A stretch of DNA of 56,042 nt, taken from IMG/VR virus record IMGVR_UViG_3300021961_000122, positions 1 through 56,042 of that record; one strand, 5' to 3'. Origin of the DNA: a virus (lineage: Duplodnaviria > Caudoviricetes). Made by a program: the position numbers and the translations under genes. How positions within the stretch are numbered: the first letter of the stretch is position 1; every line of letters starts with the position of its first letter. Shown here in pieces: positions 4,489-56,042 of the stretch. The notes beneath the pieces are model-generated. The model was not told the DNA's origin, made no database searches, and saw only the letters and a list, made by a program, of their open reading frames with translations.

Positions 4489-4508
4489 GATTAATCCCTA
4501 TACAATAT

Positions 4509-12016: not shown

Positions 12017-12023
12017 ATTATCC

Positions 12024-13085: not shown

Positions 13086-13128
13086 ATCAGTTCCTTTACA
13101 TTCAAGTGTCTTGGCATCAATTGTAGCA
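13082..13128. repeat. Direct repeat copy A (duplicate of the exonuclease 3' end)
   Basis: 43/47 nt identical to 14160-14206 by manual alignment. Confidence 0.9.
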
Positions 13129-13139
13129 TGTGATTTACA

Positions 13140-14105
13140 TTACGCATTATACTGTTTTTTCATTAAAGATTTAAAATTTGATTTGTTGTGTTGACCAATT
13201 GTATACATTTCGTTAATCAATGCTTGTTTATTGGGACTGGTGTATAGTGCTTGAAGAGAGTTGATAATTGATCTTGTACGCAATGCTGGTGTTGATTCGT
13301 TGTCGTAGCTTTCGTCGATTATGCTGTTAAATGTCTTAAAGCCCATGTCGCGAATGCGTTGTAGGCTATGTTGTCCTGCTGCCAATAAAAACGGTTTGCC
13401 GGTGAACAAACATTTTCCCAGTTTTTCAGTAAACCACCAACTATTATATGCGTGTGTTTCAGGAACAACTTCTATATAAAAATTTGGAGCAATGGCACCA
13501 TAATGTTTTATTGAATTTTCCCAGCCGTTCATCCCAGTTACATTATTAGATTTTAAAGTCAAGTCAATATTAAATGTGTGAGTTTTTAACCAATTTATTT
13601 CAGACTCGTATAAATTATCAGTATTTTTATAAAAATTGATCACTTGGTTTATATCAAAATGATGTATCAAATATGTATCGTTTGTAAAGGCTTTTTCTAA
13701 TTCATAAAGCATTCGTAATCTTGCTGTAGAAAATCTACCAATTGTACATCCTACAAACGCAGCATTGTTTTCCGGTAAAAATGTAGCACTTGTATCATAG
13801 TGGTTTGTATTCCAAAACATGCTGAGTTGACGCTTTGATGTATTAAATCGAGAGTCAATTATGTTGGATTGAGTTTCAAAATAAATTTTGTCATAAGGAA
13901 TATTGTATGCATCACATAAATGTATAAAGAAATCTACTACACCCAACAATGTTAAATTTTCACCATCGGTTGCTTTTATTATAACACGCTGATTTGTGTA
14001 GTAGTTACTAAAAATATCCTGTAGCAATTCTCGATCATCTAAGGAAAATTGACTGCCATAGACTCGACCATTGATGCGTATTGTATCATTAATAATTTGT
14101 ATCAT
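13140..14105 (-). CDS. GT-B/GT10-like glycosyltransferase-family phage protein (AT-rich)
   Basis: IEVVPET....FTEKLGK....KPF......SL..IR.MGFKTF...IDESYD. Confidence 0.55.
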   Translation of the reverse strand: MIQIINDTIRINGRVYGSQFSLDDRELLQDIFSNYYTNQRVIIKATDGENLTLLGVVDFFIHLCDAYNIPYDKIYFETQSNIIDSRFNTSKRQLSMFWNTNHYDTSATFLPENNAAFVGCTIGRFSTARLRMLYELEKAFTNDTYLIHHFDINQVINFYKNTDNLYESEINWLKTHTFNIDLTLKSNNVTGMNGWENSIKHYGAIAPNFYIEVVPETHAYNSWWFTEKLGKCLFTGKPFLLAAGQHSLQRIRDMGFKTFNSIIDESYDNESTPALRTRSIINSLQALYTSPNKQALINEMYTIGQHNKSNFKSLMKKQYNA

Positions 14106-36987: not shown

Positions 36988-38131
36988 CGTTTCTTATTTG
37001 TTTTGCCATCAGGTTAGCAAAGTCTGTACTGTGAAAATGCTCTTTATTTTTAAGAAGTCGCGGGGCAAATGATTCGTGTGCCCTTAAAATATCTTGTTCA
37101 GCAGAAGGCGATAGCAACAAGCGATCTAAAAATTCCACAATCATACGAATTCGAGTTTTATGATCAGGTTCTTGGTCCCATGTACGCCATGGAATATAGT
37201 CAGAAAACATGTCTAATCCCATGTCTTCAAAAAATTTAGTTATCCCTATAGGTCCAACTATTATGGGTATTTGGTAGGCCATAAATGGTTTTGCTGTTTT
37301 TTCAGACAGTCCAATGCCATCAGTTAAGCTAGTTTCTGTTACAAGATTTATAGCGTATTCACTATATATCGGGCTGTCTATACTGGAACTTCCGCCAAAC
37401 CACATTCGATCTGGTCCAGTTGTTATCCGATCGTTGGGCAAACGTATAGGTAATAGATGCCCATAAGAAGCAGCAGATTCGCGTTCCTCTAATGATAGAT
37501 ACCTTTTTATTGAAAACATATCAAGTCGTTCTTGAAAACTAATGCTCGAATTGTATCCTGTTATAGCATGAAAACTGTATCCAATACGATTAAACCAAGA
37601 TTTTCCAGCCAGCAAAGAAAATAGATAAATCCTGTGCCACGTGGCATTCATGTTTAACGACATTAGTGTTCGAGTTTTTTTCACAAATGGTATATCGTAC
37701 ACAGTTATATTTGGAATCCAAGATAGCAGCAAATGTTTTTGGGAAACCACATATTCTTCGATTAATTTTTGACTGATAATCCACAAAATCCAGGAAAAAA
37801 ATATTATGTTAGGGTGTGGTTGGTAAAAGTAGGTATAGTCACAGACTATAAGATAAGATGTAGTTATTTGTGATAGGTCATTATGAATTTCCGCCAGTGT
37901 TAATTGTGTTTTGCGACCATCATTATCATTTATTTTTACAGGATTCCAAATGTCTAATACTATAGTTTCTACATGATTGTCAGTTACTATTGACTGAATA
38001 CGATCTAAAAATTGTTGTTGGGTTTCATAGCTTAATCCTTGAATATCTGGATCTTCAAGCAATAAAACATTTCCGGAAAAGAATTGTTCAACCCAAGGAG
38101 TAATATGCCGTGGTGTTAAAGTGTAAATCAT
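36977..38131 (-). CDS. GT-B/GT10-like glycosyltransferase-family phage protein
   Basis: INLVTET......SEKTAKPF...QIPI..G......F..MG.D.F......WD. Confidence 0.55.
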   Translation of the reverse strand: MIYTLTPRHITPWVEQFFSGNVLLLEDPDIQGLSYETQQQFLDRIQSIVTDNHVETIVLDIWNPVKINDNDGRKTQLTLAEIHNDLSQITTSYLIVCDYTYFYQPHPNIIFFSWILWIISQKLIEEYVVSQKHLLLSWIPNITVYDIPFVKKTRTLMSLNMNATWHRIYLFSLLAGKSWFNRIGYSFHAITGYNSSISFQERLDMFSIKRYLSLEERESAASYGHLLPIRLPNDRITTGPDRMWFGGSSSIDSPIYSEYAINLVTETSLTDGIGLSEKTAKPFMAYQIPIIVGPIGITKFFEDMGLDMFSDYIPWRTWDQEPDHKTRIRMIVEFLDRLLLSPSAEQDILRAHESFAPRLLKNKEHFHSTDFANLMAKQIRNVKS

Positions 38132-38262
38132 TAGCGAACTGGAACAGGTTCTTTGATTGGTGGCAGCAACGGCTTTGGTGGTTGGGGTTGATTTAGTCCT
38201 TGTGTATTCCCTACAGGACTAACAGGCTGTGGTTGACGTGAGTTTTTTATTGCGGTGATCAT
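38131..38262 (-). CDS. 43-aa Pro/Gln-rich small protein
   Basis: Not in the ORF track: MITAIKNSRQPQPVSPVGNTQGLNQPQPPKPLLPPIKEPVPVR. ATGA overlap upstream and TAATG overlap downstream. Confidence 0.5.
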   Translation of the reverse strand: MITAIKNSRQPQPVSPVGNTQGLNQPQPPKPLLPPIKEPVPVR

Positions 38263-38891
38263 GGCGCCAAAGTGATTTTAAGAGTTTTTCTTGGATAAAA
38301 TCCAAAATTAGCACTACCGTGTGGCACCGTTATATGATCCCAATAAATTACATGACCTTTCTTCCAGCTAATTGAATTATTGTTAAAAAATAAACACTGC
38401 CCCGGCATTTGATCTTCTAACATAACTAGCCATCTTTTAGCTGGAACATCTCCATTTACTTTCTTTTCTTCTTTTTTTCTATCATAATGTAATGGAAACA
38501 TATCACCAGGTCGTTGTATAGTTAATCGCATTTGAGCGTTAGTTATATTGGCTATATCCCGAAAAATAGGTGACGGTTGGACAACTGTTCTCTTAAAATC
38601 AGTTGATAAATTTGGCGTTTCAAGTTGTCGTCCTGTTTCTGAGTATAATCGATCAAATTCAGAGTCAAAAATCCACTCATGTAATTGATTTAAATCAAGA
38701 TTTTCGTAGGTTTGTGTTAGTAAAGCTGAATAATATTCGTCACGAGGAAACGCTTTATTTTCTTTAAATTCCACTCTCTGTTGTTCAACCCAATGGTTGA
38801 CAGCATCTACTAAGTCAGTATCCGGTCCAAGAATCTCAACACCGTTGTCTTTATGATATTTTTTTGCACACCATTCAAACCATTTTTTCAT
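38259..38891 (-). CDS. 2OG-Fe(II) dioxygenase (Asp/Asn beta-hydroxylase-like)
   Basis: PG...PLHYD (HxD), W..G...W....PHGSAN.G..PR..L.IT. Confidence 0.7.
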   Translation of the reverse strand: MKKWFEWCAKKYHKDNGVEILGPDTDLVDAVNHWVEQQRVEFKENKAFPRDEYYSALLTQTYENLDLNQLHEWIFDSEFDRLYSETGRQLETPNLSTDFKRTVVQPSPIFRDIANITNAQMRLTIQRPGDMFPLHYDRKKEEKKVNGDVPAKRWLVMLEDQMPGQCLFFNNNSISWKKGHVIYWDHITVPHGSANFGFYPRKTLKITLAP

Positions 38892-38942
38892 AATATAGTT
38901 TTGCGTTTTACTTAATTATACAGCAAGTGCTAATTGGATAAT

Positions 38943-39686
38943 TTATTTATTGGTAGCGCAGTTGACGCCGTGCCAACGGGCGTAGCCATTGACTGCTACC
39001 AGTTTGTTGCAGTGGGGGCACAGTTTCTTTTCACGCTTTTTACCTGTAGTTGCTTCTATTTTTTTTCTAATAGTTTCTTCACTTTGCTTGCGGCCTGTAG
39101 CTTTGGCGGACATTTTAGCAAGTGTTTCTTCTGAATGAGTTCTGCCATACATACCATTTCCTTCACCTTTGCGTAATACAGATAGTTTTGCTTTATGTTC
39201 TTTAGACAATGGTGGTTTCTTTTTGCCTTTGGTATTCGCTACTAACTTAGCGTGTTGTTCAGGTGTTAGTTTATTACCTAGATTCTTTTGTCGTATTTTT
39301 TCTCTTGCTTCAGGTGTATGTGTTTTTCCAAAAAAACCATTTCCTTTGCCTTTTAGTTTTATGCTTTGTAATTCAGCATACTCTTCTTTAAGAGTAGCAT
39401 ACACTCTTGATGTAATTTTAGTTTTATATCGCGTTTGATTTTGATTTTCAGCTTTCATCATCCATAATGCTTTGAGTAACTGATGGCGTTCTTTACCGTA
39501 ATAGATCTTGGTTAGTAACCAGTGACATATAAAATGTTCTCGCAATGTTACATTAGTTAAATTGCTTGCGTCATCAGTACCGCCCAGACATTTAGGAATA
39601 ATATGATGAGATTCTGTTCGCTCATCAGTACTTCGAATTTGTCCGCGAGTGGTAATATCTTTATACCATTTTTCATACTTGTTCAT
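38943..39686 (-). CDS. Free-standing HNH homing endonuclease with NUMOD3 repeats
   Basis: Start MNKYEKWY at 39686. E.HHIIPKCLGG.D...NL..LT.REHF..H.LL; repeated G..H[TS].E...K[IM]; C-terminal CPHC. Confidence 0.85.
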   Translation of the reverse strand: MNKYEKWYKDITTRGQIRSTDERTESHHIIPKCLGGTDDASNLTNVTLREHFICHWLLTKIYYGKERHQLLKALWMMKAENQNQTRYKTKITSRVYATLKEEYAELQSIKLKGKGNGFFGKTHTPEAREKIRQKNLGNKLTPEQHAKLVANTKGKKKPPLSKEHKAKLSVLRKGEGNGMYGRTHSEETLAKMSAKATGRKQSEETIRKKIEATTGKKREKKLCPHCNKLVAVNGYARWHGVNCATNK

Positions 39687-39691
39687 ATGTT

Positions 39692-39740
39692 TATTTATGT
39701 TAGTTAGTTCAACAATAGCATATTTAGATACAATAGTCAA
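39692..39740 (-). promoter_or_regulatory. Sigma70-like promoter plus late promoter for the HNH gene
   Basis: TTGACT-17 nt-TATTGT (39712-39740) and TAAATA (39692-39697), the latter 5 nt before the ATG. Confidence 0.5.
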
Positions 39741-39741
39741 C

Positions 39742-39768
39742 AAAAAAGGCACTCGAAAGTGCCTTTTT
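39742..39768 (-). terminator. Intrinsic terminator after the major capsid gene (TTCG loop, possibly bidirectional)
   Basis: Minus strand reads AAAAAGGCACT-TTCG-AGTGCCTTTTTT. Confidence 0.85.
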
Positions 39769-39801
39769 GTTCCTTCCCATCCCTGAGAAAAGAAAAACGG
39801 A

Positions 39802-41010
39802 TCAGCTGAACGAGAGGTTCTGGACAGCGATTTCTCCGACATAGTCAGCAGCATTACCAAAACTGCTGGCCGTGTTGGTGAGCTCGACGAAGCCATAACG
39901 CGTCATAAAGCTGACGACTGGTTCGAATGTCGAAGGATCAAGAACAACACCACTGCTCATCAATGGAATGTAGGGGCAGTAGAATGCAGCAGCATCAGCT
40001 TCGGAGGAGCCTTTGTAGCCAACCAATACTGGCGAGCTGTCATTGGCGTAGCTGTTTACAAACACACGCATAGCGCCATTTAGTGTACCAACAAACTTGG
40101 TGTTTGTGGGTGCTTCAAATGTGCCTTCTGTTGTGCGAGCAAAAGCGGAAGTTGTAGCAGATTGCAGAACTGTCAACGAAGCTGGAGAAACAACAGCCCA
40201 GTTACCAGCGCCACGACGTGTACGCTGAGCGATCAAGTTAGCAACACGATTGATTAGAACAGCTAGAGCAGCGTGTTCGTCACCAACGAATGTAGCAGTA
40301 CCGGATACAGTAGCTTGGTTGTATGTGTACTCTGTAGCAGCCAACGAGCTCAAGCTCAACAAGATCTCTTGGTCAATCTCAGCTGTAATCTCTTGTGCGA
40401 GAGCAGCCATGATTTCAGCTTCAACGTCAATGCCATGCATGGCTTGTGCGTCTTGAGCCGATTCAAATGTCCAACGAGCTTGTAGCTTACGTGTTTTGGC
40501 TTCAACAGCTTGTTTCAGAATCTGAACACTAACTGTCTTACCGCCGTTACCTTCCATGGATGCTGTAGAAGCACCTTGATAGTTGGAAGTTGTTGTAGCG
40601 CCATTGTTAGCAGCAGCAGGACTCGAAGAGTATGCTGTAGCAATTGTGAATGGGCTCAATGCTTCTTGACCAGCAGCAACCGATGTAGCAGCAGCCGAGT
40701 TGTCAGTTAAAGCACTAGCGTAACGTACACGTAGAGTGTGAATTTGACCAACGGGACCTGTCATGGGCTGTACGCCTACCAACTCGTTAGCAATAACGGT
40801 GGGCATAACACGTCGAATCACTGGCAGAATCACACGGTTTAGTGTGGCAATGTTGCCGGATGCTGTAGAACCAGCACTGGCGTTTTCTTTCAAGTACTTG
40901 CGTGTATTCTCAAGAATAACGTTCATACTGTTGCGCTTGGAACCACTTAGACCTTCAAGTAGTGCTTCCTTGGTCTCGTCCCAGCGACCTTCTAATAATT
41001 GTTGTGACAT
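39802..41010 (-). CDS. gp23: Major capsid protein
   Basis: IRRVMP..IA..LVGVQPMTGP.GQI, AKTRKL.A.WT.E.AQD....HG.D.E.E, GYKG..E.DA..FY.PY.PL, F.P...FMTRYG. Confidence 0.97.
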   Translation of the reverse strand: MSQQLLEGRWDETKEALLEGLSGSKRNSMNVILENTRKYLKENASAGSTASGNIATLNRVILPVIRRVMPTVIANELVGVQPMTGPVGQIHTLRVRYASALTDNSAAATSVAAGQEALSPFTIATAYSSSPAAANNGATTTSNYQGASTASMEGNGGKTVSVQILKQAVEAKTRKLQARWTFESAQDAQAMHGIDVEAEIMAALAQEITAEIDQEILLSLSSLAATEYTYNQATVSGTATFVGDEHAALAVLINRVANLIAQRTRRGAGNWAVVSPASLTVLQSATTSAFARTTEGTFEAPTNTKFVGTLNGAMRVFVNSYANDSSPVLVGYKGSSEADAAAFYCPYIPLMSSGVVLDPSTFEPVVSFMTRYGFVELTNTASSFGNAADYVGEIAVQNLSFS

Positions 41011-43893: not shown

Positions 43894-45717
43894 TTATGCT
43901 GTCGGGGGCGGAGGAACGGCACCGGGTGCTACAGGTATGCTGCCCGGAGCGGATGTTGGCCCGATACCACCAATATCCGGAGAGCCTTCAGGTGGCAATG
44001 CAGACAACTCGTCCCCAGTTTCAATGTCGCTTTCCATGCCAGCAGGCGTAATACCGATACTTCGCAAGTCTTGTCCTTGTGTGGTTTCAAGGTTGGGCTG
44101 ATCGCGTTCTTCTTTCCACAACTTGGAGTTTTCAGTGATTTCTTCTTCACTCAGTCCCAAATAACGCTGCATTAGAAAACGCTTGCTCATATAGGGCAAC
44201 TGCTCTAGTTGCGCAAAAGTACCTACACGGCCGGTGTCCATTTCAGCTTGACGATAGCTGGCAAAGTTTTGCGGGGGACCCAGTGTAATGTCAAACAAGC
44301 TGTTGTCAATGTTAAAACCGCGCCATTTCATAAACATCTTAAACTCGTCGTCGAGTTTTTGTATAATCAGTCGCTGTAGACGTTCGCAGTACTGGTTGAA
44401 ACGATACTCCTGAATAAGGGCTGTGCCTACTTTTCCGTCGTTTAATGCACGGTCTGAGTCGTCGGGACCAGTGGGCAAATAGCTGGAAGGCACACGCAAA
44501 CCACGGGCCATTTTGTTGTTAAAATACTTCAAATCGTCAATTTCGCCCAGTCCAGTACCGCCGGGTAGTGTGTCTACAGAGCTGCCGCGACCGTCGGAAG
44601 TTTGGGGGAAGAAGTAGTCTTCGTTGATGCTTAGTGGGTTGTAAGCAGCGTCCATCATGTTAGCGCCACCGCCTGATACAGTGGGGATACGGCGTTGGTG
44701 CATTTCGTTCTTTACTCGCTCCACAAAAGCCATTGCCATGTGGCTGGGCATGTTGCCCACGTCAATCTTAAACACACGCCGCTCCGGTGCACGACTTACA
44801 CGATAAATCAACACTGAATCTTCTAGCAGTTCTTTCTGCTTGTAAACTTTGAAGATGTTTTCTAAAATACTTTGTCCAAAGGGCCAGAAAAAGTCTAAGC
44901 CTTCATTCAAGCTCAAATGCACCACGTGTTTAGCATCAATAGTGGTTTCATTCATAGCTTGTGTGAAGCGGCTGTTGCCTTGTGTGCCACCATAACCGCC
45001 GCCACCACCCCCATTGGGCGCTGTATAATTGTTTTGTCCCACAGAGCCAGTAGCACGGCTTACATAGTAATCAGCAGTGGTTTTGGGAGCAATGCTTAAA
45101 TTTTGAAAATTGGGGTTGATGTCACGGATAACATACTGCTCGGGACGCTTGCCTTCGCTTTCGTTTACAATTACACGGCTGACTTTGACCATGTCAACCC
45201 AGTACATTTCAAATGTTTCGGGGTCGCGCACAAACACTTGATCGCCATACTTGATAGTATTCCGAAACAGTTTGAACATCCGCTGATCAAGTTTGTTTAA
45301 TTTGGTCCACTGTTGCAGTTGTTTTTTGATAATTTCCACTTCGTGATCAGTGGGTTTATCTTTAAATTGTATGTCAAAGGGTGTGTTATTATCTTCGTTG
45401 TTTTGTGTGCTAAACTCAGCAATAATGTCTAAACATGCGTTAATTTCTGAATCCATGTCCATGTTTTCATATTGATTATAGCGTTCAATACGATTAGGAT
45501 GGCCCGAATACACTTCGGGTAGTCGACTGGCATAGTTGCGAAAGGCAAAATCATTAGCGGTAGACGTGCTGCCCGAGCCGTTTTGACGACCATAGCCCGG
45601 AAGGCCGTTGGCATTGTTTCCGGATATAGGGCTGAGTTGTCCATTTACGGAACCGTCGGCAACTTTGAAATATTTTCTCCAGCCTCGGCCGTTTCTACTG
45701 TTGGTTGGTTCAGCCAT
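43894..45717 (-). CDS. gp20: Portal protein
   Basis: LLED..LIYR..RAPERRVF.IDVGNMP, EDYFFP....GRG..V.TLPGG..LG.I.D..YF. Confidence 0.97.
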   Translation of the reverse strand: MAEPTNSRNGRGWRKYFKVADGSVNGQLSPISGNNANGLPGYGRQNGSGSTSTANDFAFRNYASRLPEVYSGHPNRIERYNQYENMDMDSEINACLDIIAEFSTQNNEDNNTPFDIQFKDKPTDHEVEIIKKQLQQWTKLNKLDQRMFKLFRNTIKYGDQVFVRDPETFEMYWVDMVKVSRVIVNESEGKRPEQYVIRDINPNFQNLSIAPKTTADYYVSRATGSVGQNNYTAPNGGGGGGYGGTQGNSRFTQAMNETTIDAKHVVHLSLNEGLDFFWPFGQSILENIFKVYKQKELLEDSVLIYRVSRAPERRVFKIDVGNMPSHMAMAFVERVKNEMHQRRIPTVSGGGANMMDAAYNPLSINEDYFFPQTSDGRGSSVDTLPGGTGLGEIDDLKYFNNKMARGLRVPSSYLPTGPDDSDRALNDGKVGTALIQEYRFNQYCERLQRLIIQKLDDEFKMFMKWRGFNIDNSLFDITLGPPQNFASYRQAEMDTGRVGTFAQLEQLPYMSKRFLMQRYLGLSEEEITENSKLWKEERDQPNLETTQGQDLRSIGITPAGMESDIETGDELSALPPEGSPDIGGIGPTSAPGSIPVAPGAVPPPPTA

Positions 45718-47814: not shown

Positions 47815-48651
47815 ATGCCAAATAACCCTTTAGCACAATACTTTAGGCAGCCGTCAATTTATGTCAAGTTGCCTAGCGGCGGGAAATACTATCCCGAAAC
47901 AGCTATAGACATGCCGGCTAACGGCGAGCTGCCAGTTTATCCAATGACTGCCATTGACGAAATTACCTATCGAACGCCAGACGCACTATTCAACGGCAAT
48001 GCAACAGTTAATGTTATCAAAAGTTGTATTCCTGCTATACAGGATCCGTGGTCTATTCCAGCAATGGATGTAGACACAATACTAGTTGCTATACGCATTG
48101 CCAGTTATGGGCACAATATGGAAATTTCAACTACTTGTCCGCACTGTCAAAACGAAGCTGATTACGGACTTGACCTAAGAACAGTATTGGGACAGATGCG
48201 AGCACCTGATTACTCTAAATCAGTACACGACGGTGATCTTGAGATTTACTTTAAGCCCATGACTTATAAAAATCTTAATGACAATAATCAACGTCAATTT
48301 GATGAGCAAAAACTTATTCAAGTGCTGCCCGACACTGACATGCCTGATGAACAGCGTATGTCAGCACTAAGCGAAGCGCTGGTAAAAATTACCAATATAA
48401 CTGTAGGTGCTATTGCACAAAGTATCGCCGCAGTAAAAACACCTTCAGCAGTGGTTAGCGAGCCCGAGTATATTGAAGACATGTTAAAGCATTGTGATCG
48501 TCGACTGTTCAACAAGATACGTGATCACATTATCAACACCAAATCACAAGGTGAAATACAGCCAATGAAACTCAAGTGTGCTGCCTGCTCAAAAGAATAT
48601 CAGCAAGCAATTACACTTGACATGACAAGTTTTTTCGCGGACGCCTCTTAG
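47815..48651 (+). CDS. gp26: Baseplate hub assembly protein (gp26-like)
   Basis: LPS.G, MT..DE, D...IL..IR.ASYG, CPHC and C..C, ending ...FF. Confidence 0.75.
   Translation: MPNNPLAQYFRQPSIYVKLPSGGKYYPETAIDMPANGELPVYPMTAIDEITYRTPDALFNGNATVNVIKSCIPAIQDPWSIPAMDVDTILVAIRIASYGHNMEISTTCPHCQNEADYGLDLRTVLGQMRAPDYSKSVHDGDLEIYFKPMTYKNLNDNNQRQFDEQKLIQVLPDTDMPDEQRMSALSEALVKITNITVGAIAQSIAAVKTPSAVVSEPEYIEDMLKHCDRRLFNKIRDHIINTKSQGEIQPMKLKCAACSKEYQQAITLDMTSFFADAS
48630..48636 (+). other. Predicted -1 ribosomal frameshift site T TTT TTC
   Basis: In-frame slippery heptamer 5 codons before the stop. The -1 frame is open into 48654..48866. Confidence 0.6.
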
Positions 48652-48653
48652 TC

Positions 48654-48866
48654 TTGAACTCTGATCAAATTTCCAAGTGGGTTGATCAGATGGAAAAAGA
48701 AGTTAAAGAAATCAAGCAAGAGGCGCTCAAAATGGTTTGGTATATGCGGGGCGGATTATCATACGAAGCAGCACTTAATCTCAGTCCCGATGAGCGTGCG
48801 TCAATATCAAAAATTATCAAAGATAACTTAGAAACCACAAAAAAGAGCGGCCTTCCTTTCTTTTAA
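48654..48866 (+). CDS. gp51-like baseplate/tail assembly chaperone C-terminal part (probably reached by frameshift)
   Basis: W.MRG..SY..A..LS..ER..I pattern. Only a TTG start without SD (an alternative ATG exists at 48690). Confidence 0.6.
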   Translation: MNSDQISKWVDQMEKEVKEIKQEALKMVWYMRGGLSYEAALNLSPDERASISKIIKDNLETTKKSGLPFF

Positions 48867-48868
48867 AA

Positions 48869-49372
48869 ATGTTAGATTTAGAAACAGTAAAACAAGACAT
48901 ACTGGCTTGGTCTGAAAACTTTGTGGAAGTTCCACACCCAGCACTAGGAGGCTGGCCACCTTGTCCTTTTGCACGCCGCGCACGTTTGTCGGGCACAGTT
49001 CAAGTGGTAGTAGGCAGTGATCCTTACTACGATTTAAAAAGTCGAGCACGGCATGGTATGGGCGCATATGAAGTTATTGTTTATGCGTATGATCCTGTGG
49101 AGCACCCTTATGAGCGTTTTCATCGTGCGTTAGAAGATGCTAACACTGAATTTTTATTGCCAAATGATTTATTGGCGCTTGAAGATCACCCCACAGACGT
49201 AGAGTTAGTCAATGGTGTTTGCATGAACCAAGGTAAGTATGCACTGGCATTGGTACAACGTTTAAGCAAGTTAAATGACAGTGCAGCACAAATGGCTGCC
49301 AAAGGCTTTTATCATACCTGGCCCGAAGAATACTTAAAAACGCTGTTTCACAATCGGAAGGATCCGAGATGA
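48869..49372 (+). CDS. DUF1415-like protein
   Basis: W...FVE.......PPCPFAR, EDHP and L.QRL..L motifs. Confidence 0.45.
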   Translation: MLDLETVKQDILAWSENFVEVPHPALGGWPPCPFARRARLSGTVQVVVGSDPYYDLKSRARHGMGAYEVIVYAYDPVEHPYERFHRALEDANTEFLLPNDLLALEDHPTDVELVNGVCMNQGKYALALVQRLSKLNDSAAQMAAKGFYHTWPEEYLKTLFHNRKDPR

Positions 49373-49800
49373 CTTACCAATTTGCTCGCATTGATCTTGC
49401 TAGAACCACTTATGAAGAGAGTTGTGATTGGTATTACATCACCAAGCCTGACATTGATCAACTGAATGAAATTTACAAAAGATACTGCATCTACAAGCAT
49501 TTTGCCAGTGTTATGCCTATCTTTGAATATCGTTATCGTGCGCCAATGACTGATGTAATTGGTTATCGGCATGGGGGAGAGTTAGTGGCGTTTAGTTTAA
49601 TTGAACGCTATGACAACAAGAACGCATTGTGCGCTCAGTTTGCTTGGGATTATCGAACACCAAGATTACGGCTTGGTATCGAAAGTTTGCAAACTGAGTG
49701 TGCAATTTATCGCAAGCGGGGCTTTGACTACTTGTACTTAGATCAGGCACACTTGTACAAACAAAGCATGCAAGGCTTTGAAATATTAGGACCACTATAA
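49369..49800 (+). CDS. Aminoacyl-tRNA-protein transferase (ATE1/Bpt C-terminal-like) GNAT protein
   Basis: G.LVAFS........A....WDY....LRLG..SL..E......G..YLYL.....YK matches the ATE_C pattern. Confidence 0.6.
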   Translation: MTYQFARIDLARTTYEESCDWYYITKPDIDQLNEIYKRYCIYKHFASVMPIFEYRYRAPMTDVIGYRHGGELVAFSLIERYDNKNALCAQFAWDYRTPRLRLGIESLQTECAIYRKRGFDYLYLDQAHLYKQSMQGFEILGPL

Positions 49801-49801
49801 C

Positions 49802-50938
49802 ATGTATTCAGTTTATCAACATTGGGACCCTTTAAAAGTATGCGTAGTAGGACGCAGTTATCCTCCTGAGTTTTATTCTTGGATTGCCGTACCACACGTA
49901 AGAGAGTTATTTGAACGTATTGCTATTGAAACAGAAGAAGACTATCAAAATATTATTAAAAAACTAGAAGAATTTGGTGTAGAAGTATTAAGACCAGACT
50001 TGCCTGAAGAAACATTTTTAGATGGTAGATTTGTACAACCACCAATGACTCCTAGAGATTATACAATTATGATTGGAGAGAATTTTTTTAGCAACTATTT
50101 GATTCGTGACTTTGGACATTTTTACTGGAATTTTAAGCAAGAAGATTGGCCATGGTGTAATTCAGAAGAGGACTTATACATTTTACCTAAAGATATTCAA
50201 GTTAGTTGTCAAGAAGCATATAAACTGTATGATTTATATACTAAGTCTGTTAATTGTTACGATAAAATATTGCAGCATATTAAGGACCAAGGTAACAAAT
50301 TATTTACAGAAAATAGTTTTAGTCAGACTAACGGTGCAATGGTAACAAGAATAGGTAAAGATTTGTATTTTGGTACAAACAGAAACATTCAAGATATAAC
50401 TGAATATAAAAAATTAATCAACAACAAGTTTACTACCACTCGAAATCACATTGTTAATACCAATGGTCACAGTGACGGAACATACTGCCCAGTTTGTCCT
50501 GGATTGATTATAAGTTTAAATGACGTACCAACATACCAAGATACTTTCCCAGGTTGGGAAGTGGTATACTTACCTGGACAAAGTTGGGATGCTGTAAAAC
50601 CATTTTTGAATCTTAAAATGAAAAATGCTGGTAAGTGGTGGATACCAGGATTTGAACACGATCAATCAGTAATCGACTTAGTCGAAACATGGTTGGGTCA
50701 TTGGACTGGCTACGTTGAAGAAACTGTATTTGATGTTAACATGCTAATCATTGACCCTAAAAATGTTATAGTATTCAATTACAACAAACAGGTATTTGAT
50801 GCATTAGAACGTTATGGCATTACCCCACACATTGTACCATTTCGACATAGATATTTTTGGGATGGTGGTATACATTGCATAACAAGCGATCTAGATAGAG
50901 AAGGTACAATGCAAGATTATTTTCCAGAAAGAGGTTAA
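49802..50938 (+). CDS. Amidinotransferase (glycine/inosamine-phosphate amidinotransferase family)
   Basis: WDPLK..VVG, PRD, GHSDG, VNML, GGIHCIT.D..R; the catalytic Asp/His/Cys-type motifs are present. Confidence 0.85.
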   Translation: MYSVYQHWDPLKVCVVGRSYPPEFYSWIAVPHVRELFERIAIETEEDYQNIIKKLEEFGVEVLRPDLPEETFLDGRFVQPPMTPRDYTIMIGENFFSNYLIRDFGHFYWNFKQEDWPWCNSEEDLYILPKDIQVSCQEAYKLYDLYTKSVNCYDKILQHIKDQGNKLFTENSFSQTNGAMVTRIGKDLYFGTNRNIQDITEYKKLINNKFTTTRNHIVNTNGHSDGTYCPVCPGLIISLNDVPTYQDTFPGWEVVYLPGQSWDAVKPFLNLKMKNAGKWWIPGFEHDQSVIDLVETWLGHWTGYVEETVFDVNMLIIDPKNVIVFNYNKQVFDALERYGITPHIVPFRHRYFWDGGIHCITSDLDREGTMQDYFPERG

Positions 50939-50939
50939 C

Positions 50940-51275
50940 ATGGCAGACTTATATACAATTTGGGCAAACAAAGAAGGCAATATTACTGACTTAGAATGGG
51001 TCAACGGAATGAAAAGTTTCTTTGATCATTTAATCTCCGAAGGCAAAATGGAAAGTTATCGCATCACTCGTTGTAAAATGGGATTCCGATCAATTGCTGA
51101 CATGCCGGAATTTATGATTTTGATGGAGTTCAAAAACATGGGTCAAATGGATGAAGCATTCCGCCGTGTTGCTCCACTTGAAGGCGAACTTGAAGTTAAG
51201 CACAAATCATTCAATCAGTTTGTTGCCGGAGACATTCAGCACGCACTTTTTAGGGACTGGCCCGACCAGTTATGA
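50940..51275 (+). CDS. Dimeric alpha/beta-barrel-like protein (DUF6614-like)
   Basis: YRITR.K.GF......EF.I..EF....Q.D.AF, ALFRDWPD. Confidence 0.45.
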   Translation: MADLYTIWANKEGNITDLEWVNGMKSFFDHLISEGKMESYRITRCKMGFRSIADMPEFMILMEFKNMGQMDEAFRRVAPLEGELEVKHKSFNQFVAGDIQHALFRDWPDQL

Positions 51276-51820
51276 ACGATATTATACTATTGGCGCTGGC
51301 TGAAGAAGCGCCTGGTTTGTCTCAGTATGGTAATGTATTTTTTACGGGTGTAGGCAAAGTAAATGCCGCAATGACTACAGCAGAGTTAATCGAACGCCAC
51401 AAACCTAAACGAGTTATTAATTTTGGTACAGCAGGTGGTATTACTGTGGGCACCGGCTTACACTTAGTATCACGCTATGTTCAACGTGATATGGTCTGTT
51501 GCGAATTGGGCAGCAAACCCGGTCAAACACCCTTTGAAGATTTAGGTGTAGTGTTAGACTTAGGCGGAGATGGATTAACTTGTAGTACAGGTGACAACTT
51601 TGTTACTAATCCAGAGTTAGAAATACCCGCTGACATAGTAGATATGGAAGCATACGCAATCGCAAAGACATGCTATCGAAAAGGCGTTGAATTTGTTTGT
51701 TATAAATTTGTAAGCGATAGTGCTAATGAACATTCATATCGTGATTGGCGTGAAATGGTATCAGCGGGAGAATCACTGTACATCGAAAAACTAAAAGAGT
51801 ATGATATAATCATACTTTAA
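51272..51820 (+). CDS. mtnN: MTA/SAH nucleosidase (PNP_UDP_1 family)
   Basis: GVGKVNAA, INFGTAGG, TGD.FV, VDME..AIA, K.VSD.A. Confidence 0.85.
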   Translation: MNDIILLALAEEAPGLSQYGNVFFTGVGKVNAAMTTAELIERHKPKRVINFGTAGGITVGTGLHLVSRYVQRDMVCCELGSKPGQTPFEDLGVVLDLGGDGLTCSTGDNFVTNPELEIPADIVDMEAYAIAKTCYRKGVEFVCYKFVSDSANEHSYRDWREMVSAGESLYIEKLKEYDIIIL

Positions 51821-52213
51821 GATCTCTGCGAGATCTATTGATTTCGCTGCGCTCATCAATTTTTGTTTTCTTAGTATTATCTAGATTACGCAGTCATAAT
51901 TCACCGTAAGCACGGTGAATTGGTTCTACAGCATTATCTGAGTGTAGCAGCCTTTATTATCAAGAGATTGTAGATTCTACGCAGAGGCGGTTGACCGGTA
52001 CCCCTTACTCTAGCTTCACATATCAACGGAACCCTAGTGACCCCATAATAAATCGAAGTCCTATAAGCATGGGTTGTATCTTTTTCACAGAGCCCAAATC
52101 GTTTGTTGCCTTAAGTTAGCATTGTTCTTTGACACCCAAGCATCCGGACCGGGTATTCCACCGTTCCTCAAAGGGGTTGAGCCATGTCACTCAACACAGA
52201 GTCGTAATTGATT
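51821..52213 (-). ncRNA. Candidate large structured ncRNA directly downstream of the GIY-YIG gene
   Basis: ~390 nt with no ORF in an otherwise gene-dense genome; several hairpins and crossing long-range complementarities. Strand inferred from the upstream gene. Confidence 0.55.
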
Positions 52214-52642
52214 TTAAAGTTTGTTTTTAATGTGATTACCGTGTACTTTTACACTGATTATCCCATTGTAATAATCGTCTGATTCTAATACTTTTCTATT
52301 GAACTGTTCACGAGCTTCAATGTATGAACACGCCGCTTTTGAACTGCAATAGTATAGTATTTCTCTGGAGAAATTTTCGGTGCCTAGTTTTAAGATGTCA
52401 GCTGCCAGTTCAAGACTTGAACCATAATACTCACGCCAATCGCTGTCGATTCGAGTGCGTATTCGCTTTTTCTTTTTGATGCCGTTCTTTTGTTTTACTA
52501 CTTTTACTGTGGTTTTTGAGAACTTTGCTAATTTTTTGCCTATGTACTTGCGTCCGGAGAGATTATTAGTGATTAAGTATACAAATCCAACACATTCTTC
52601 GGGTAGTGTCTCAACTGGAGTGTCTTGATAGTACCATGTCAT
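52214..52642 (-). CDS. Compact GIY-YIG nuclease-domain protein
   Basis: GFVYLITN..SGRKYIGKK, W..YYGSS, E...QF, YYN. Has a basic insert and no NUMOD tail. Confidence 0.75.
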   Translation of the reverse strand: MTWYYQDTPVETLPEECVGFVYLITNNLSGRKYIGKKLAKFSKTTVKVVKQKNGIKKKKRIRTRIDSDWREYYGSSLELAADILKLGTENFSREILYYCSSKAACSYIEAREQFNRKVLESDDYYNGIISVKVHGNHIKNKL

Positions 52643-52686
52643 GTGTTGTATTCAATTGTGTGCCTTTTGCTGTGTAGTTATATCAA

Positions 52687-53697
52687 TTACCAGGCGGTGG
52701 CATAATTTTTGTCAACCACTAAACTTTTACATTTAGTTTGACATTCTTGCCACCGAAATGTTTGAAATTCTGTGTTCCAAAACTGATCTGCTAACACGCT
52801 GGTTAAAGATTTATTGTTTAAATTGAAATTTTCTGCTATTTGTTGCCAGTCTGAGTTGTGATTGTATCTGTTTGCTACCCAGCAGCAAGGAAATAGCCTG
52901 CCACGAGCATCAATATACAACCCTTTGTTACCTATTTCGCATAAGGGTGTAATACCATCACGAGATTTAATTGTTTTGTATAATTCAATATTAGTAGGAG
53001 AAATTTTGTCTTCTCCCCCGCGCTTAGTTAAAATGTCTATTTCTCTCTCAAAACGATAGGTACTACTGATAAATCGAATGCTAGGTTCCAGTGGGTCATT
53101 TGCCCCATAGCTAGGATAAACACTGCCAAATTTGGTACTTTTTGTTAGTTGAAAAACGTCTACACCTAATTGACGAGCTTGATTTCTCATATTGTCAATT
53201 TGATTTTCATTAAACTTAAATGCAATTGCTGCCCAAGTAATTTTACAATCTGAATGCTCCCTTACTGTTTTTATTCCTAGCATAATGCTGTCATAGTCGC
53301 TATTAACACGGTATAAATTGTTTGACTCATTATTATATCCGTCAATGCTAAAGTGTATGCTATCATTGGCGTCTAACGATTCGGCTAGTTCTTTCCACCA
53401 AGCCTCCTTTTTATGACTTCCATTAGTAACAATTACAATTTCAACAGGTTTAACACTTTTGATATATTGTATAACTGGAATTAAATCATGGGCATAAATT
53501 GGATCGCCGTCATCACCACAGAAGGTAATTTTTTCCAAATTGGTTAGTATAAATTCTGGTGTAAAATTTCGTTTAAAAAAATCTAAATCTAATTCAGTAT
53601 TAACTAATCCATTAGGTACTTCTTGCCGCGCACATCTAGGGCAAGCAAGAGTACACTTACTTGAAATTTCAATATGAAAATGCCAAGTTGCTAACAT
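52687..53697 (-). CDS. Radical SAM protein with Twitch/SPASM-like C-terminal domain
   Basis: CTLACPRC, CG..GDP, TNG, FSIDG, C...LYIDA.G...PCCW...C...C. Confidence 0.9.
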   Translation of the reverse strand: MLATWHFHIEISSKCTLACPRCARQEVPNGLVNTELDLDFFKRNFTPEFILTNLEKITFCGDDGDPIYAHDLIPVIQYIKSVKPVEIVIVTNGSHKKEAWWKELAESLDANDSIHFSIDGYNNESNNLYRVNSDYDSIMLGIKTVREHSDCKITWAAIAFKFNENQIDNMRNQARQLGVDVFQLTKSTKFGSVYPSYGANDPLEPSIRFISSTYRFEREIDILTKRGGEDKISPTNIELYKTIKSRDGITPLCEIGNKGLYIDARGRLFPCCWVANRYNHNSDWQQIAENFNLNNKSLTSVLADQFWNTEFQTFRWQECQTKCKSLVVDKNYATAW

Positions 53698-54554
53698 AAT
53701 TGACTATTTCTCTGCCATTGATTAGTAAAGCTAGTTTTGTTTTTATTAGTTGAACAAGTAGCTTTGCAAACTGGATTGGGTGTATCTGTTTTCCATGACT
53801 GCTTTATTTCAACGAAATTGTGCTCAAAGTTTGATTGTCTAGATCCTAACCAGCAGCAAGGGCTGACATTCCCTCGAGCATCAATGTACATACTTTTTTC
53901 TTCTAAAATGTAGCACTTAATTTTACCAGATTTAACTGTAGCCGACTGCCACCCAATCGGAAATTCTAGTCGATTGGTAAATCCACGCTTGCTAACCTTA
54001 GCACGAAACCATGTAAATCCCATATCGCGTGCTAGTTGTTCACATGCATCAACTTGATGTTGATTATGTTTGTATACCAACATATCCCAGTGTGCTGACC
54101 CGCCTGCTGATATGTATGCTTCGACATTGGCCATTAGTTTACGCCAATCAGAGTTGACTCGATAAACAGGATTAGTATCTTCTAAACCATCAATGCTGAA
54201 TACTACATAGTCTCGTGGCTGATTAAACATCTTGCCTAATTCGTTCCACCAAAATGTATTTTGTAGTGCTCCATTGGTGTTCATTCCTAATGTTATGTTA
54301 GGATTAACTTGGCGGAAATATCTATAGATGTCTAGCGTATATTTGCCCGCAGCTGGATCACCATAATTGCCGCACATGAACATCTTGTCAAGACCAGCAA
54401 TTGTTTTGTCAGAAAAATGCTTCTGTATTTGACTTAGTCTTAAATGATGTTTTAATTCTTTTTTAAATTCTGGATCAGTTTCTCGAGCACACAACGGACA
54501 AGCTAGTTGACAAACATCAGTTGGCTCTACGTGTAATACTTTTATTTTACGCAT
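53691..54554 (-). CDS. Radical SAM protein with Twitch/SPASM-like C-terminal domain (tandem paralog)
   Basis: Start MRKIKVLHVE at 54554; CQLACPLC, CGNYGDP, TNG, FSIDG, PCCW. Confidence 0.9.
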   Translation of the reverse strand: MRKIKVLHVEPTDVCQLACPLCARETDPEFKKELKHHLRLSQIQKHFSDKTIAGLDKMFMCGNYGDPAAGKYTLDIYRYFRQVNPNITLGMNTNGALQNTFWWNELGKMFNQPRDYVVFSIDGLEDTNPVYRVNSDWRKLMANVEAYISAGGSAHWDMLVYKHNQHQVDACEQLARDMGFTWFRAKVSKRGFTNRLEFPIGWQSATVKSGKIKCYILEEKSMYIDARGNVSPCCWLGSRQSNFEHNFVEIKQSWKTDTPNPVCKATCSTNKNKTSFTNQWQRNSQLC

Positions 54555-56042
54555 GATCAATGTCAGTGTTGTAACTGGTAAAGCCACCTTCTTTGACCAC
54601 ACGAAGAATATTTTCAACACGCCCAGCTAACTCATCACGATGGCTAACCAACCAAATGGATTTGTGCCGTTCACGACTCATGTGCTTGAGTAGAGCCAAA
54701 CTGTTTTCAACGCCTTGTGTGTCTAGCCCCGAATCAATCATTTCATCAACAAACAGGACATTAATTGGTTGATATAAACTTTCATAAACATCACGGAATG
54801 CCCACGACATTGACAGTATCAATCGATTCCGCTCACCACGACTTAAATTGTCAAAATCAAGTTCACGGCCTAGTTCCTCAATGCTAACGGTTAAATCATT
54901 CTGAAACACCACGGTATGGGGCAGTCCAATGCGATCAAGATAGTAAGTTAATCGTGCGTTTAGATAGCTGAGATTTTGCTCAATAATCTTTTTACGAATA
55001 AACGAATCTTTGCTGGTTAGCAGTTTTAACAAAAACTCTTGATGCTCTTGAAGCCGCGTTAACCCATTTAGTGTATCGTAGTTGACTTCTTGTAGTGCCT
55101 GCGACTGCATTTCGTCAATTTGTTCACCATAAGGATCAGCTTCGCCCGATTTTGATTTGATCTGCTGCTCTAGACCAGCAAGCGTGGTTCTATGCGAAAT
55201 AGCATCTTCTTCACGATCATAATACATCTTTGGTGGTTTGCCAATATCCCCAATGGCATCGCTGGCTTCTTGCAGTTTAGTCAGCGTATCGCTGTGCAAA
55301 GCCACTTGATCTGTTGCTTCATCTAACTCTTTTTGTTTAGCAGCTAGTACAGCAGTTTGTTTAGCATCATGAAATGGTTGTCCACAAGTGTGGCAAGTGT
55401 GCGATTCAAGCGTGGCAATTTCCTTGGACAACTTGTCAGCTGATTTTTGCTCGCGTTGTAGATCTAGCTTGGCTCGACTGATTGCAGTGGCTAATTCATT
55501 AAATTCTTTTCTTTGCAAATCCCAGGACGCATGATCTTTGTGTGCTTGAATTTCGGCAGCAATGTCAATTTTTTGTAGCTCGTCTAATCCATTTTGGAGT
55601 TGATCCAGCTCTTCTTTGTGTTTGGTTACCCATAAGGTTTGTCGACGCTTTAAACTTTCAATTTGCTCTTCAATACGTTTGTTGGCCTCTTGTACAGCAC
55701 GAATGCGAAATTCTTCTTGTGTAATGCCATCTTTGGTTTCACGATTAAGTTCTTTGATACGTTCGGCACGCTCACTGAGTAGTGTAATACCCAGTAGTTG
55801 CTCAATTATAGTGCGTTGATCATTGGCCTTTAAACTTAAAAACGGTTCAGTGTAAGTGTTTAGTGCCAGAATGTGTTTGAACATGTCATGACTAAGTCCT
55901 AACACATCCTCAATTGCAGTTTGTGTTTCTCGGCTGTCACCTTGAGCATTGTCAGCAACTTCTTGCTCGTGGTTGTCAACATAAAACTTCAGTATGTTTG
56001 GCTTACGTCCACGTTCAATTCTGTAAGCGGTACTGCCTACAG
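54547..56042 (-). CDS. gp46: SbcC/Rad50-like recombination endonuclease subunit, 5'-truncated by the window edge
   Basis: Frame stays open to the edge (…YRIERGRKPN…); Zn-hook CHTC, signature LSRGE, Walker B LFVDEMID, SH switch. Confidence 0.92.
   Translation of the reverse strand, partial: VGSTAYRIERGRKPNILKFYVDNHEQEVADNAQGDSRETQTAIEDVLGLSHDMFKHILALNTYTEPFLSLKANDQRTIIEQLLGITLLSERAERIKELNRETKDGITQEEFRIRAVQEANKRIEEQIESLKRRQTLWVTKHKEELDQLQNGLDELQKIDIAAEIQAHKDHASWDLQRKEFNELATAISRAKLDLQREQKSADKLSKEIATLESHTCHTCGQPFHDAKQTAVLAAKQKELDEATDQVALHSDTLTKLQEASDAIGDIGKPPKMYYDREEDAISHRTTLAGLEQQIKSKSGEADPYGEQIDEMQSQALQEVNYDTLNGLTRLQEHQEFLLKLLTSKDSFIRKKIIEQNLSYLNARLTYYLDRIGLPHTVVFQNDLTVSIEELGRELDFDNLSRGERNRLILSMSWAFRDVYESLYQPINVLFVDEMIDSGLDTQGVENSLALLKHMSRERHKSIWLVSHRDELAGRVENILRVVKEGGFTSYNTDIDHA

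Follow-up and report, generated by a model that had tools for sequence, protein, structure and literature searches.

A conserved module of T4-like phages pairs a truncated ATE1/Bpt transferase homologue with a putative thiolate-heme protein

We describe a gene module of uncultured T4-like phages that was found in a 56,042-nucleotide (nt) stretch of DNA, here called the window, which is a 56-kb fragment of the IMG/VR record IMGVR_UViG_3300021961_000122 with an estimated completeness of 16%. The module follows the gene of a T4-type baseplate hub protein and consists of gene A, which encodes a putative thiolate-heme protein, gene B, which encodes a truncated relative of the ATE1/Bpt aminoacyl-tRNA transferases, and gene D, which encodes a DUF6614 protein. 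Counts in three sets of related loci, selected by gene C, by gene B, and by a long form of B, identify hub-A-B-D as the conserved unit, whereas the amidinotransferase gene C, the nucleosidase gene E, and two radical S-adenosylmethionine (SAM) genes are optional. Uncultured T4-like phages with the module after their hub gene form a very large group, mostly of 300–350 kb phages. We tentatively propose, as a possibility that falls somewhat short of an even chance, that it performs an arginine- or guanidino-centred modification involving tRNA-dependent aminoacyl transfer, heme oxygenation, and amidino transfer. The hub gene and the genes that follow it in the window are:

47815..48651, plus strand: T4-type baseplate hub gene (Pfam T4_baseplate, 1.6e-17; phrog_150, 'baseplate hub')
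48654..48866, plus strand: 70-residue open reading frame (ORF) between the hub gene and A, with homologues at the same position in related loci
48869..49372, plus strand: gene A, putative divergent thiolate-heme 'sandwich-fold' protein of 167 residues (weak DUF6875 match, AglA-like predicted fold)
49369..49800, plus strand: gene B, single-domain GNAT of 143 residues, truncated ATE1/Bpt relative (ATE_C only)
49802..50938, plus strand: gene C, amidinotransferase-family enzyme with pentein fold (profile matches AGAT)
50940..51275, plus strand: gene D, DUF6614 protein of 111 residues (Pfam DUF6614, 7.6e-21)

The genes are tightly packed. ATGA overlaps join A to B and D to E, spacers of 1 nt separate B from C and C from D, and the junction between the 70-residue ORF and A is 2 nt. 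The family scan of the 70-residue ORF gave nothing significant. The hub gene is the fixed upstream neighbour of A in most of the B-selected loci and probably shares one transcription unit with the module. An earlier sequence-only reading of the window had described A to E as coupled genes that lead from the baseplate genes to two radical SAM genes. All of the ORFs that it named are present in the ORF list of the window with the same coordinates, the coupling is as tight as it described, and family scans agree with most of its guesses.

For the set selected by C, 137 of 139 matched stretches were confirmed and 80 loci were kept. A and B are both present in 41 of these loci (34 of them with D) and both missing from 39, in which C stands alone or as a pair of paralogues; A and B are never found apart. 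The set selected by B, with 583 of 598 stretches confirmed, provided 78 new loci, from which L005 and L008 had been excluded. Their composition is A-B-D in 59, A-B-C-D in 11, A-B-D-E in five, B-D in two, and A-B-C in one. Counted by gene, the B-selected loci include 76 with A, 77 with D, 12 with C, and five with E, and A, B, and D occur together in 75. D is located within 100 nt downstream of B in 70 of 77 loci. The third set was selected by the long form of B (alignment A4); 530 of 600 stretches were confirmed and 80 loci were kept. A is adjacent to the long-form gene in 70 of them, D in 50, and C in six. The gene order in this clade is hub, small ORF, A, B, and D, but B is often inverted relative to the genes on either side of it. 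Since A and D still adjoin B in this second clade, the linkage of A, B, and D survives both inversion and deep divergence. A and B are therefore supported as functional partners by their gene neighbourhood in two deeply diverged phage clades and in both orientations. The sequence-only reading had proposed co-occurrence in related phages as a check of its gene group; A, B, and D do co-occur, but E and the radical SAM genes do not.

The genes downstream of D in the window belong to an adjacent island:

51272..51820, plus strand: gene E, methylthioadenosine/S-adenosylhomocysteine (MTA/SAH)-type nucleosidase (Pfam PNP_UDP_1, 8.5e-18)
52214..52642, minus strand: SegE-type GIY-YIG endonuclease gene (Pfam SegE_GIY-YIG, 1.2e-31)
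52687..53697, minus strand: radical SAM enzyme 1, with a possible partial SPASM/twitch C-terminus (Radical_SAM, 3.4e-8)
53691..54620, minus strand: radical SAM enzyme 2, paralogue of the first (Radical_SAM, 1.8e-7)

The SegE-type gene, which was absent from the earlier description, is located between E and the radical SAM pair. The complete interval from D to a gp46-like gene was available for 39 B-selected loci. It ranges from 917 to 4503 nt and carries varying cargo. All 39 intervals contain a GIY-YIG gene at the same place, as a fixed neighbour on the right, 17 contain radical SAM genes, and two contain E, one of these without a radical SAM gene. E, the SegE gene, and the radical SAM pair are separate variable cargo of this island and lie outside the conserved module. 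Cargo families c10, c12, and c21 (260–390 residues, loci L001–L080) recur in the slot after D in related phages, and a Pfam scan of these three clusters gave no match. Two members of c10 match the C profile weakly (best 4e-6), and c10 may be a very divergent pentein paralogue.

The sequence-only reading had placed all seven genes in a single pathway, in which an MtnN-type nucleosidase clears 5'-deoxyadenosine for two radical SAM enzymes that finish the product of A to D. Removal of this by-product by a nucleosidase relieves the inhibition of radical SAM enzymes, E overlaps D in the window, and a radical SAM gene is present in four of the five E-containing B-selected loci. Nevertheless, the pathway is very improbable, because E is missing from all 80 C-selected loci and from all but five of the 78 selected by B, 17 of the 39 bracketed islands contain radical SAM genes, and one of the two bracketed loci with E has none. 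In addition, a homing-endonuclease gene separates the radical SAM pair from E, and the pair is encoded on the opposite strand. The E homologue of Kyanoviridae phage C48C1 adjoins ribonucleotide reductase genes. The region is composite and not one seven-gene pathway.

E passes the PNP_UDP_1 cut-off (65 versus 25.1 bits). Its best NCBIfam matches are PRK05634 'nucleosidase' (4.2e-29, 101.6 versus 129 bits) and PRK05584 (68.5 versus 169 bits). It remains below every NCBIfam equivalog cut-off, with MTA/SAH and futalosine nucleosidases as the nearest relatives, so the assignment is one of family-level membership. The homologue in C48C1, with 62% identity, follows nrdA/nrdB and precedes a SegE-like gene. 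The record of C48C1 and phrog_447, which is the best PHROG match of the SegE-type gene, label the SegE-type family 'NAD synthetase'; this looks like a propagated mis-annotation. Both radical SAM ORFs contain a CX3CX2C motif and exceed the Radical_SAM cut-off (34.3 and 31.9 versus 29.5 bits). An auxiliary-cluster (SPASM/twitch) domain is only suggested by sub-threshold SPASM matches of 19.5 bits (0.0012, in 52687-53697) and 18.0 bits (cut-off 21.5), and by a match of the second ORF to an NCBIfam twitch-domain radical SAM family at 2e-9, below the cut-off. The few relatives of the pair in cultured phages are unannotated or generically named. If read from its listed GTG, the second radical SAM ORF shares 74 nt with the gp46-like ORF; the ATG at 54554 (Met23) is a more plausible start and was the one assumed in the earlier description.

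It could also be that no joint pathway exists, and that A to E and the radical SAM pair each have a separate accessory or anti-defence role and have accumulated in a hypervariable island beside the homing-endonuclease gene. The length variation and differing cargo of the interval between D and the gp46-like gene agree with this, as does the coming and going of C, E, and the radical SAM genes. D might have an anti-defence role, because Druad1, a 44-residue anti-Druantia protein, was labelled DUF6614 by HHpred (preprint 10.1101/2024.04.14.589459). However, Druad1 is a weak lead to the function of the 111-residue D, because it is so short and, according to the available text of that preprint, has no BLAST homologues. 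D is the most conserved member of the module. It scores 74.7 bits against DUF6614 (PF20319, cut-off 25), which establishes its membership, and 54 residues are invariant in 14 sequences, though the matching A proteins are only ~30% identical at the lowest. The inseparability of A and B in the 80 C-selected loci would be unexpected for unrelated cargo, as would the persistence of the A-B-D group in 75 of the 78 loci selected by B and, in the long-form clade, after inversion of B. We consider the absence of a joint pathway improbable.

B was described in the sequence-only reading as an ATE1/Bpt-like GNAT. Sequence profiles confirm the ATE similarity, whose absence that reading had named as a refutation, and set B apart from a standard acetyl-CoA GNAT. 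Among 30 B homologues (alignment A1), ATE_C is the only GNAT family detected, with matches in 19 at E ≤ 0.1. A profile search with the B family among 1.84 billion representatives identified 175 proteins at E ≤ 0.001. Many of these are 225–268 residues long, and B aligns with their residues ~55–200. The ATE_C gathering score is passed by nine of the ten long relatives that were scanned; the tenth scores 22.4 bits. Alignments of the short (A1) and long (A4) forms match each other in hhalign with a probability of 99.9% (E 1.4e-34), and the A4 profile matches six PDB sequences, all of them ATE1 (best five E 1.1e-10 to 5.2e-10, human isoform E 2.2). Judged from these profiles, the homology of B to the ATE_C domain is solid, through the one intermediate A4. 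The predicted model of B (predicted local distance difference test score, pLDDT, 89.0) has a GNAT fold and resembles the second lobe of two-lobed acyl and aminoacyl transferases. A VIA search with the model matched VipF (Z 15.0, root-mean-square deviation (rmsd) 2.6, 137 residues aligned), MprF (Z 14.1), FemX (14.0), NMT (13.9), and Sba18 (12.9), and the Foldseek matches include KlAte1 at 2.4e-5. The predicted fold alone cannot separate an aminoacyl-tRNA donor from an acyl-CoA donor. B presumably depends on tRNA.

The active site of B was mapped from the alignment of A4 with klAte1 and from residue roles given in PMC9351520. According to the available text of that study, Tyr303-Lys304 of klAte1 are the active-site pair, Glu277 binds arginine, and Ser255, Ser273, and Tyr289 are also pocket residues. 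The pair corresponds to Tyr130-Lys131 of B, and Ser255/Ser273/Glu277/Tyr289 correspond to Cys88/Ser106/Glu110/Leu122. Tyr130 is conserved in 30, Lys131 in 28, and Glu110 in 26 of the 30 B homologues, and the glutamate is present in 34 of 37 A4 sequences. The remaining pocket positions (Cys88, Ser/Thr106, and Leu122) are a mixture of ATE1-like and Bpt-like residues. The pocket glutamate appears to lean towards a basic amino acid donor, and since the glutamate that binds the arginine side chain in ATE1 is kept in B, arginine is the probable donor. B starts at the strand that closes the N-terminal region of its long-form relatives. That region is of a different kind from that of ATE1, with neither an ATE_N match nor the conserved Cys4.

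A is most likely a miniature member of the thiolate-heme superfamily, related to P422/DUF6875 in sequence profiles and to YqcI/YcgG proteins in its predicted fold. The DUF6875 family has been renamed cytochrome P422, a thiolate-ligated heme enzyme with an alpha/beta sandwich and the heme-ligand cysteine in an RxGxVCP motif (preprint 10.64898/2025.12.11.692455). AglA is a heme enzyme of the YqcI/YcgG family that N-hydroxylates amide-linked arginine, holds its heme through Cys44, and has a four-stranded sandwich (PMC12866846). A weak DUF6875 match is present in 26 of 29 A homologues (best 6.6e-4). The ESM-feature neighbours of A are clusters named DUF1415 or DUF6875, so the earlier designation 'DUF1415-like with CPFA' was a fair one. 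The sole invariant cysteine of the A family is Cys32, located in the motif PCP[FY]AR, in which Cys32-Pro33 is invariant. The comparison set for A comprised four bona fide DUF6875 genes, from four of the 201 genomes searched in the phylum of the cyanobacterium Oscillatoria sp. PCC 10802 (L242). The A alignment (A2) matches the four DUF6875 proteins in hhalign with a probability of 83.7% (E 8.1e-6) over 46 N-terminal columns, and the match puts Cys32 on the DUF6875 heme-ligand cysteine. The predicted model of A (pLDDT 94.7) is an alpha/beta sandwich. A VIA search of 48,161 chains returned a single chain with Z ≥ 5, AglA 9ub3 (Z 7.2, rmsd 3.8, 148 of 167 residues aligned); the next chain has a Z of 4.3. 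The order of secondary-structure elements in the model of A agrees with the four-stranded sandwich of AglA. A presumably binds heme.

Other searches with A were less productive. The P422 structure named in the available text of preprint 10.64898/2025.12.11.692455 was not among the VIA matches, Foldseek returned nothing at E ≤ 0.001, and direct searches of PDB sequences with profiles A1, A2, and A5 returned nothing meaningful. A scan of the window with Pfam YqcI_YcgG (PF08892) gave no match. Its shorter chain, sub-threshold Pfam score, missing SBR1-3 motifs, and PPCP sequence instead of GxVCP make it unlikely that A shares the substrate of P422. The search for fused forms of A identified one protein, P0271 of 465 residues, which was uninformative. 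It has an A-type domain at its C-terminus and a ~295-residue N-terminal part without a Pfam match. P0271 is a single sequence on a 1.9-kb contig and may be a gene-calling artefact. The bacterial neighbourhoods of distant A relatives were also uninformative.

The sequence-only reading had suggested that A could be the partner subunit of B. The functional pairing is upheld by the gene neighbourhood, but homology of A to the missing ATE_N half finds no support, and A is instead a homologue of thiolate-heme proteins. A as the missing ATE_N half of B was rejected as a case of homology, since an hhalign comparison of A2 with the long-form B alignment returned a probability of only 1.5%.

C was named an amidinotransferase in the sequence-only reading, and profile comparison bears this out. 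C alone has only a weak arginine deiminase match in Pfam. The profile of 35 C homologues (A3) matches AGAT at 9.2e-18, HsvA at 2.1e-15, and StrB1 and SxtG at 6.3e-13; below E 0.7 it matches no further pentein class. Cys359, His223, Asp225, and Asp86 of C are invariant in all 35 sequences; we take their roles to be those of the AGAT catalytic and substrate residues, and the numbering agrees with the alignment. By sequence criteria, C is a true amidinotransferase-family protein. Its position within the operon varies, with A-B-C-D and A-C-B-D both observed. Two database clusters, P0276 (489 residues, eight members) and P0275 (515 residues, 16 members), appear to be C-D fusions with DUF6614 at the C-terminus, and their N-terminal domains are 28–30% identical to C (E 4e-47 and 4e-45). 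All five large records that have A-B-D without an adjacent C (81–100% complete, 300–349 kb) have C-family genes elsewhere, and of five large records picked because C has a different context in them, four contain B; the fifth record is 76% complete. C is weakly linked to the module, because of the two insertion orders, the C-D fusion clusters, and the genome-wide co-occurrence.

Records G202-G206, from which loci L102, L103, L120, L124, and L126 derive, are near-complete (300–349 kb) and encode one to three full-length amidinotransferase paralogues together with weaker fragments. This suggests a phage-specific expansion of amidinotransferases in jumbo phages, possibly with amino-sugar acceptors. 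In other phages, amidinotransferase-family genes adjoin genes of an NAD-dependent epimerase, DegT aminotransferase, GTP cyclohydrolase I, or UDP-glucose dehydrogenase.

The sugar-related surroundings of C raise the alternative that aminoacyl or guanidino groups are put on phage DNA bases, nucleotide sugars, or virion glycans. C-family genes outside the module are located next to NAD-dependent epimerase/dehydratase, DegT-type aminotransferase, GTP cyclohydrolase I, and UDP-glucose dehydrogenase genes, and StrB1, which is an amino-cyclitol amidinotransferase, is among the C profile matches. The amidinotransferase gene of cyanophage S-SCSM2R is near an AHBA_syn-type aminotransferase gene and a radical SAM gene (PMC12801897). 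However, the sugar-gene contexts of C lack A, B, and D, and the locus showed none of the hallmark genes of DNA modification. We know of no ATE-type enzymes that act on nucleic acids or sugars. Hypermodification of this kind is quite improbable.

Based on the relatives of A, B, and C, a mechanism for the arginine/guanidino module can be proposed. The best-studied members of the three nameable families, ATE1, the amidinotransferases, and the AglA-type enzymes, all perform arginine or guanidino chemistry. ATE1 transfers arginine from tRNA, and amidinotransferases use arginine as the amidino donor. The module is favoured because the three families share this chemistry and because the enzyme pairing in the argolaphos cluster, described below, is analogous. 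B would take an amino acid, probably arginine, from charged tRNA and join it to an amine acceptor. Hydroxylation of the acceptor or of the joined product would fall to A, which would employ O2 and a ferredoxin system of host or phage origin, by chemistry modelled on that of P422 with tryptophan and of YqcI/YcgG enzymes with guanidines. C, where present at the locus or elsewhere in the genome, would move the amidino group of free arginine to an amine, and D may work with C. The acceptor could be a small molecule, resulting in an N-hydroxy or guanidino aminoacyl compound, or a protein N-terminus. The family relationships, the conserved residues, and the co-occurrence counts are observed directly, whereas we infer arginine as the donor, the order of the steps, and the nature of the product.

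Several observations weigh against this proposal. The direct Pfam matches are weak: B matches only ATE_C, at 4.5e-4 and 21.3 bits, below the 25-bit cut-off, and A matches DUF6875 (PF21780) with E 0.007 and 16.9 bits versus a cut-off of 24.5. The heme motif in A reads LGGWPPCP, in which Cys-Pro align with RxGxVCP and the arginine and glycine are not at equivalent positions. The tryptophan motifs SBR1-3 of P422, as given in the available text on that enzyme, are missing from A when alignment A2 is inspected by eye, with only a loose MxxGxY resembling SBR3. The match to AglA is modest, with a Z of only 7.2. The fold of B matches acetyl-CoA GNATs such as VipF at least as well as MprF or Sba18. Scans of B and of ten long relatives gave no match to ATE_N, and the mixed pocket, with Leu122 as in Bpt, means that the donor could be leucine or another amino acid. 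The position of C that aligns with the catalytic Asp254 of AGAT is Asn in 26 of 35 sequences. C is absent from 66 of the 78 B-selected loci and is often found in unrelated contexts (gp32/UvsX, helicase, epimerase/DegT/GTP cyclohydrolase I, and UDP-glucose dehydrogenase/UvdE). Retrieval of IMG/VR loci with P0276 gave 78, none of them with C and D in one ORF, and the genome-wide co-occurrence of C with A-B-D may reflect only the shared ancestry of one phage clade.

A protein N-terminus as the acceptor is the main rival to a small-molecule acceptor. A would oxidise an N-terminal residue and B would add an amino acid to it, which would redirect ClpS/ClpAP-type proteolysis or mark virion proteins. 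The only detectable relatives of B, by the A4 profile, are protein-modifying ATE1 enzymes, and the Tyr-Lys pair and the glutamate are conserved. The module adjoins the baseplate hub gene, and the strict pairing with an oxygenase fits the logic of a two-step degron. In the Cys branch of the eukaryotic Arg/N-degron pathway, the residue is likewise first oxidised and then arginylated. Nevertheless, B lacks ATE_N, the domain that recognises the acceptor, an acidic N-terminal residue, in klAte1 (PMC9351520), and its long relatives, with their different N-terminal region, have no ATE_N match and no conserved Cys4. The known relatives of A, as described in the available texts, act on free amino acids or small molecules (PMC12866846; preprint 10.64898/2025.12.11.692455), and the amidinotransferase link would be left without a role. 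Modification of proteins is unlikely, and we favour the arginine/guanidino module over it.

We speculate that the module represents the first viral ATE/Bpt-type transferase, obligatorily coupled to a miniature thiolate-heme oxygenase and drawing on the charged tRNA of the host. It might build either an N-hydroxylated guanidino aminoacyl antimetabolite or an oxidise-then-aminoacylate protein mark. We regard this full scenario as doubtful. Pseudouridimycin follows a logic comparable to that of the proposed antimetabolite. If real, the protein mark would depend on oxygen and heme and would be the equivalent, in a bacterial virus, of the Cys/Arg N-degron branch of eukaryotes.

The B family is represented by at least 583 IMG/VR stretches with the short form and 530 with the long form, and no B homologue was found in a phage collection of 50,697 records. 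In the same collection, A-like genes occur only in HMO-2011, CRP-345, and CRP-810 (25–28% identity), and C-like genes in four records, including that of cyanophage S-SCSM2R, in whose virion proteome a 'glycine amidinotransferase' was found (PMC12801897). BFVD contains one unnamed B homologue. Literature searches for a phage-encoded Bpt/ATE-type transferase found nothing relevant. The chromosome of Oscillatoria sp. PCC 10802 (L242) contains an A homologue with 54% identity at 3998-4507 (plus strand) and, beside it, a 59-residue fragment of the long form of B at 4560-4736 (minus strand), located between panB and a TPS-domain gene. This locus may be a remnant of phage DNA. The Oscillatoria A homologue with its B fragment, together with the Kyanoviridae relative of E, hints at cyanobacterial hosts.

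The window also contains other T4-like structural genes, such as that of the portal protein gp20 at 43894-45717 (match 1.1e-103). Near and distant DNA searches and protein searches of the phage collection identified no close relative of the locus. A tRNA gene scan of the window found none, and promoter and terminator scans gave only chance-level results, with one TATAAATA in the window. The largest ORF is a single 3047-residue frame at 22703-31846 (minus strand). Two 2-kb segments, 12001-14000 and 38001-40000, have G+C contents of 0.351 and 0.375, compared with the usual 0.41–0.46, and may be acquired cargo.

What appears to be new is that phages combine an ATE-type transferase with a P422/YqcI-type heme protein and DUF6614. 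The combination is widespread among jumbo T4-like phages that have not been cultured; the papers searched do not describe it, and the collection of cultured phages contains no match to B. Enzymes that divert aminoacyl-tRNA from the ribosome are, to our knowledge, rare, and the B family is found here with a member of a heme-enzyme superfamily that was recognised only in 2025. Should the module turn out to produce a compound or to mark proteins, this would represent a new kind of phage takeover or auxiliary chemistry. The proposed activities, if true, would provide a source of compact biocatalysts, a 167-residue heme oxygenase and a 143-residue tRNA-dependent ligase. DUF6614 gains a testable context.

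The GNAT core of B is homologous to ATE_C and keeps the Tyr-Lys pair and the glutamate of the arginine pocket of ATE1/Bpt enzymes. These enzymes are about 235–500 residues long, whereas B has 143 residues, and their ATE_N and Cys4 zinc finger are missing in B, so the acceptor site of B must differ from that of ATE1. Unlike them, B is phage-encoded, paired with a heme-type protein, and itself below the Pfam cut-off. A shares with P422 and YqcI/YcgG (AglA) proteins the predicted order of sandwich elements, the aligned heme-ligand cysteine, and a similar stretch of 46 N-terminal columns; however, those proteins have about 220–270 residues compared with the 167 of A, which has PPCP for GxVCP and lacks SBR1-3. 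The profile of C matches AGAT, StrB1, HsvA, and SxtG over its full length, with the catalytic cysteine, the histidine, and two substrate-binding aspartates invariant. It differs in that the third triad residue aligns with Asn in C, and in that C is multi-copy in jumbo phages. A known pathway with similar logic is the argolaphos cluster, which combines the YqcI/YcgG N-hydroxylase AglA/AlpD with the GNAT aminoacyl-tRNA-dependent ligases AlpF/AlpO (PMC8976061). The two systems would share the same pairing of enzyme types, tRNA-dependent amide formation by a GNAT and a thiolate-heme hydroxylase that acts on amide-linked arginine (PMC8976061, PMC12866846). The argolaphos cluster differs in being a bacterial antibiotic cluster with phosphonate genes and FemAB-type GNATs (PF13480), and it has neither an amidinotransferase nor DUF6614.

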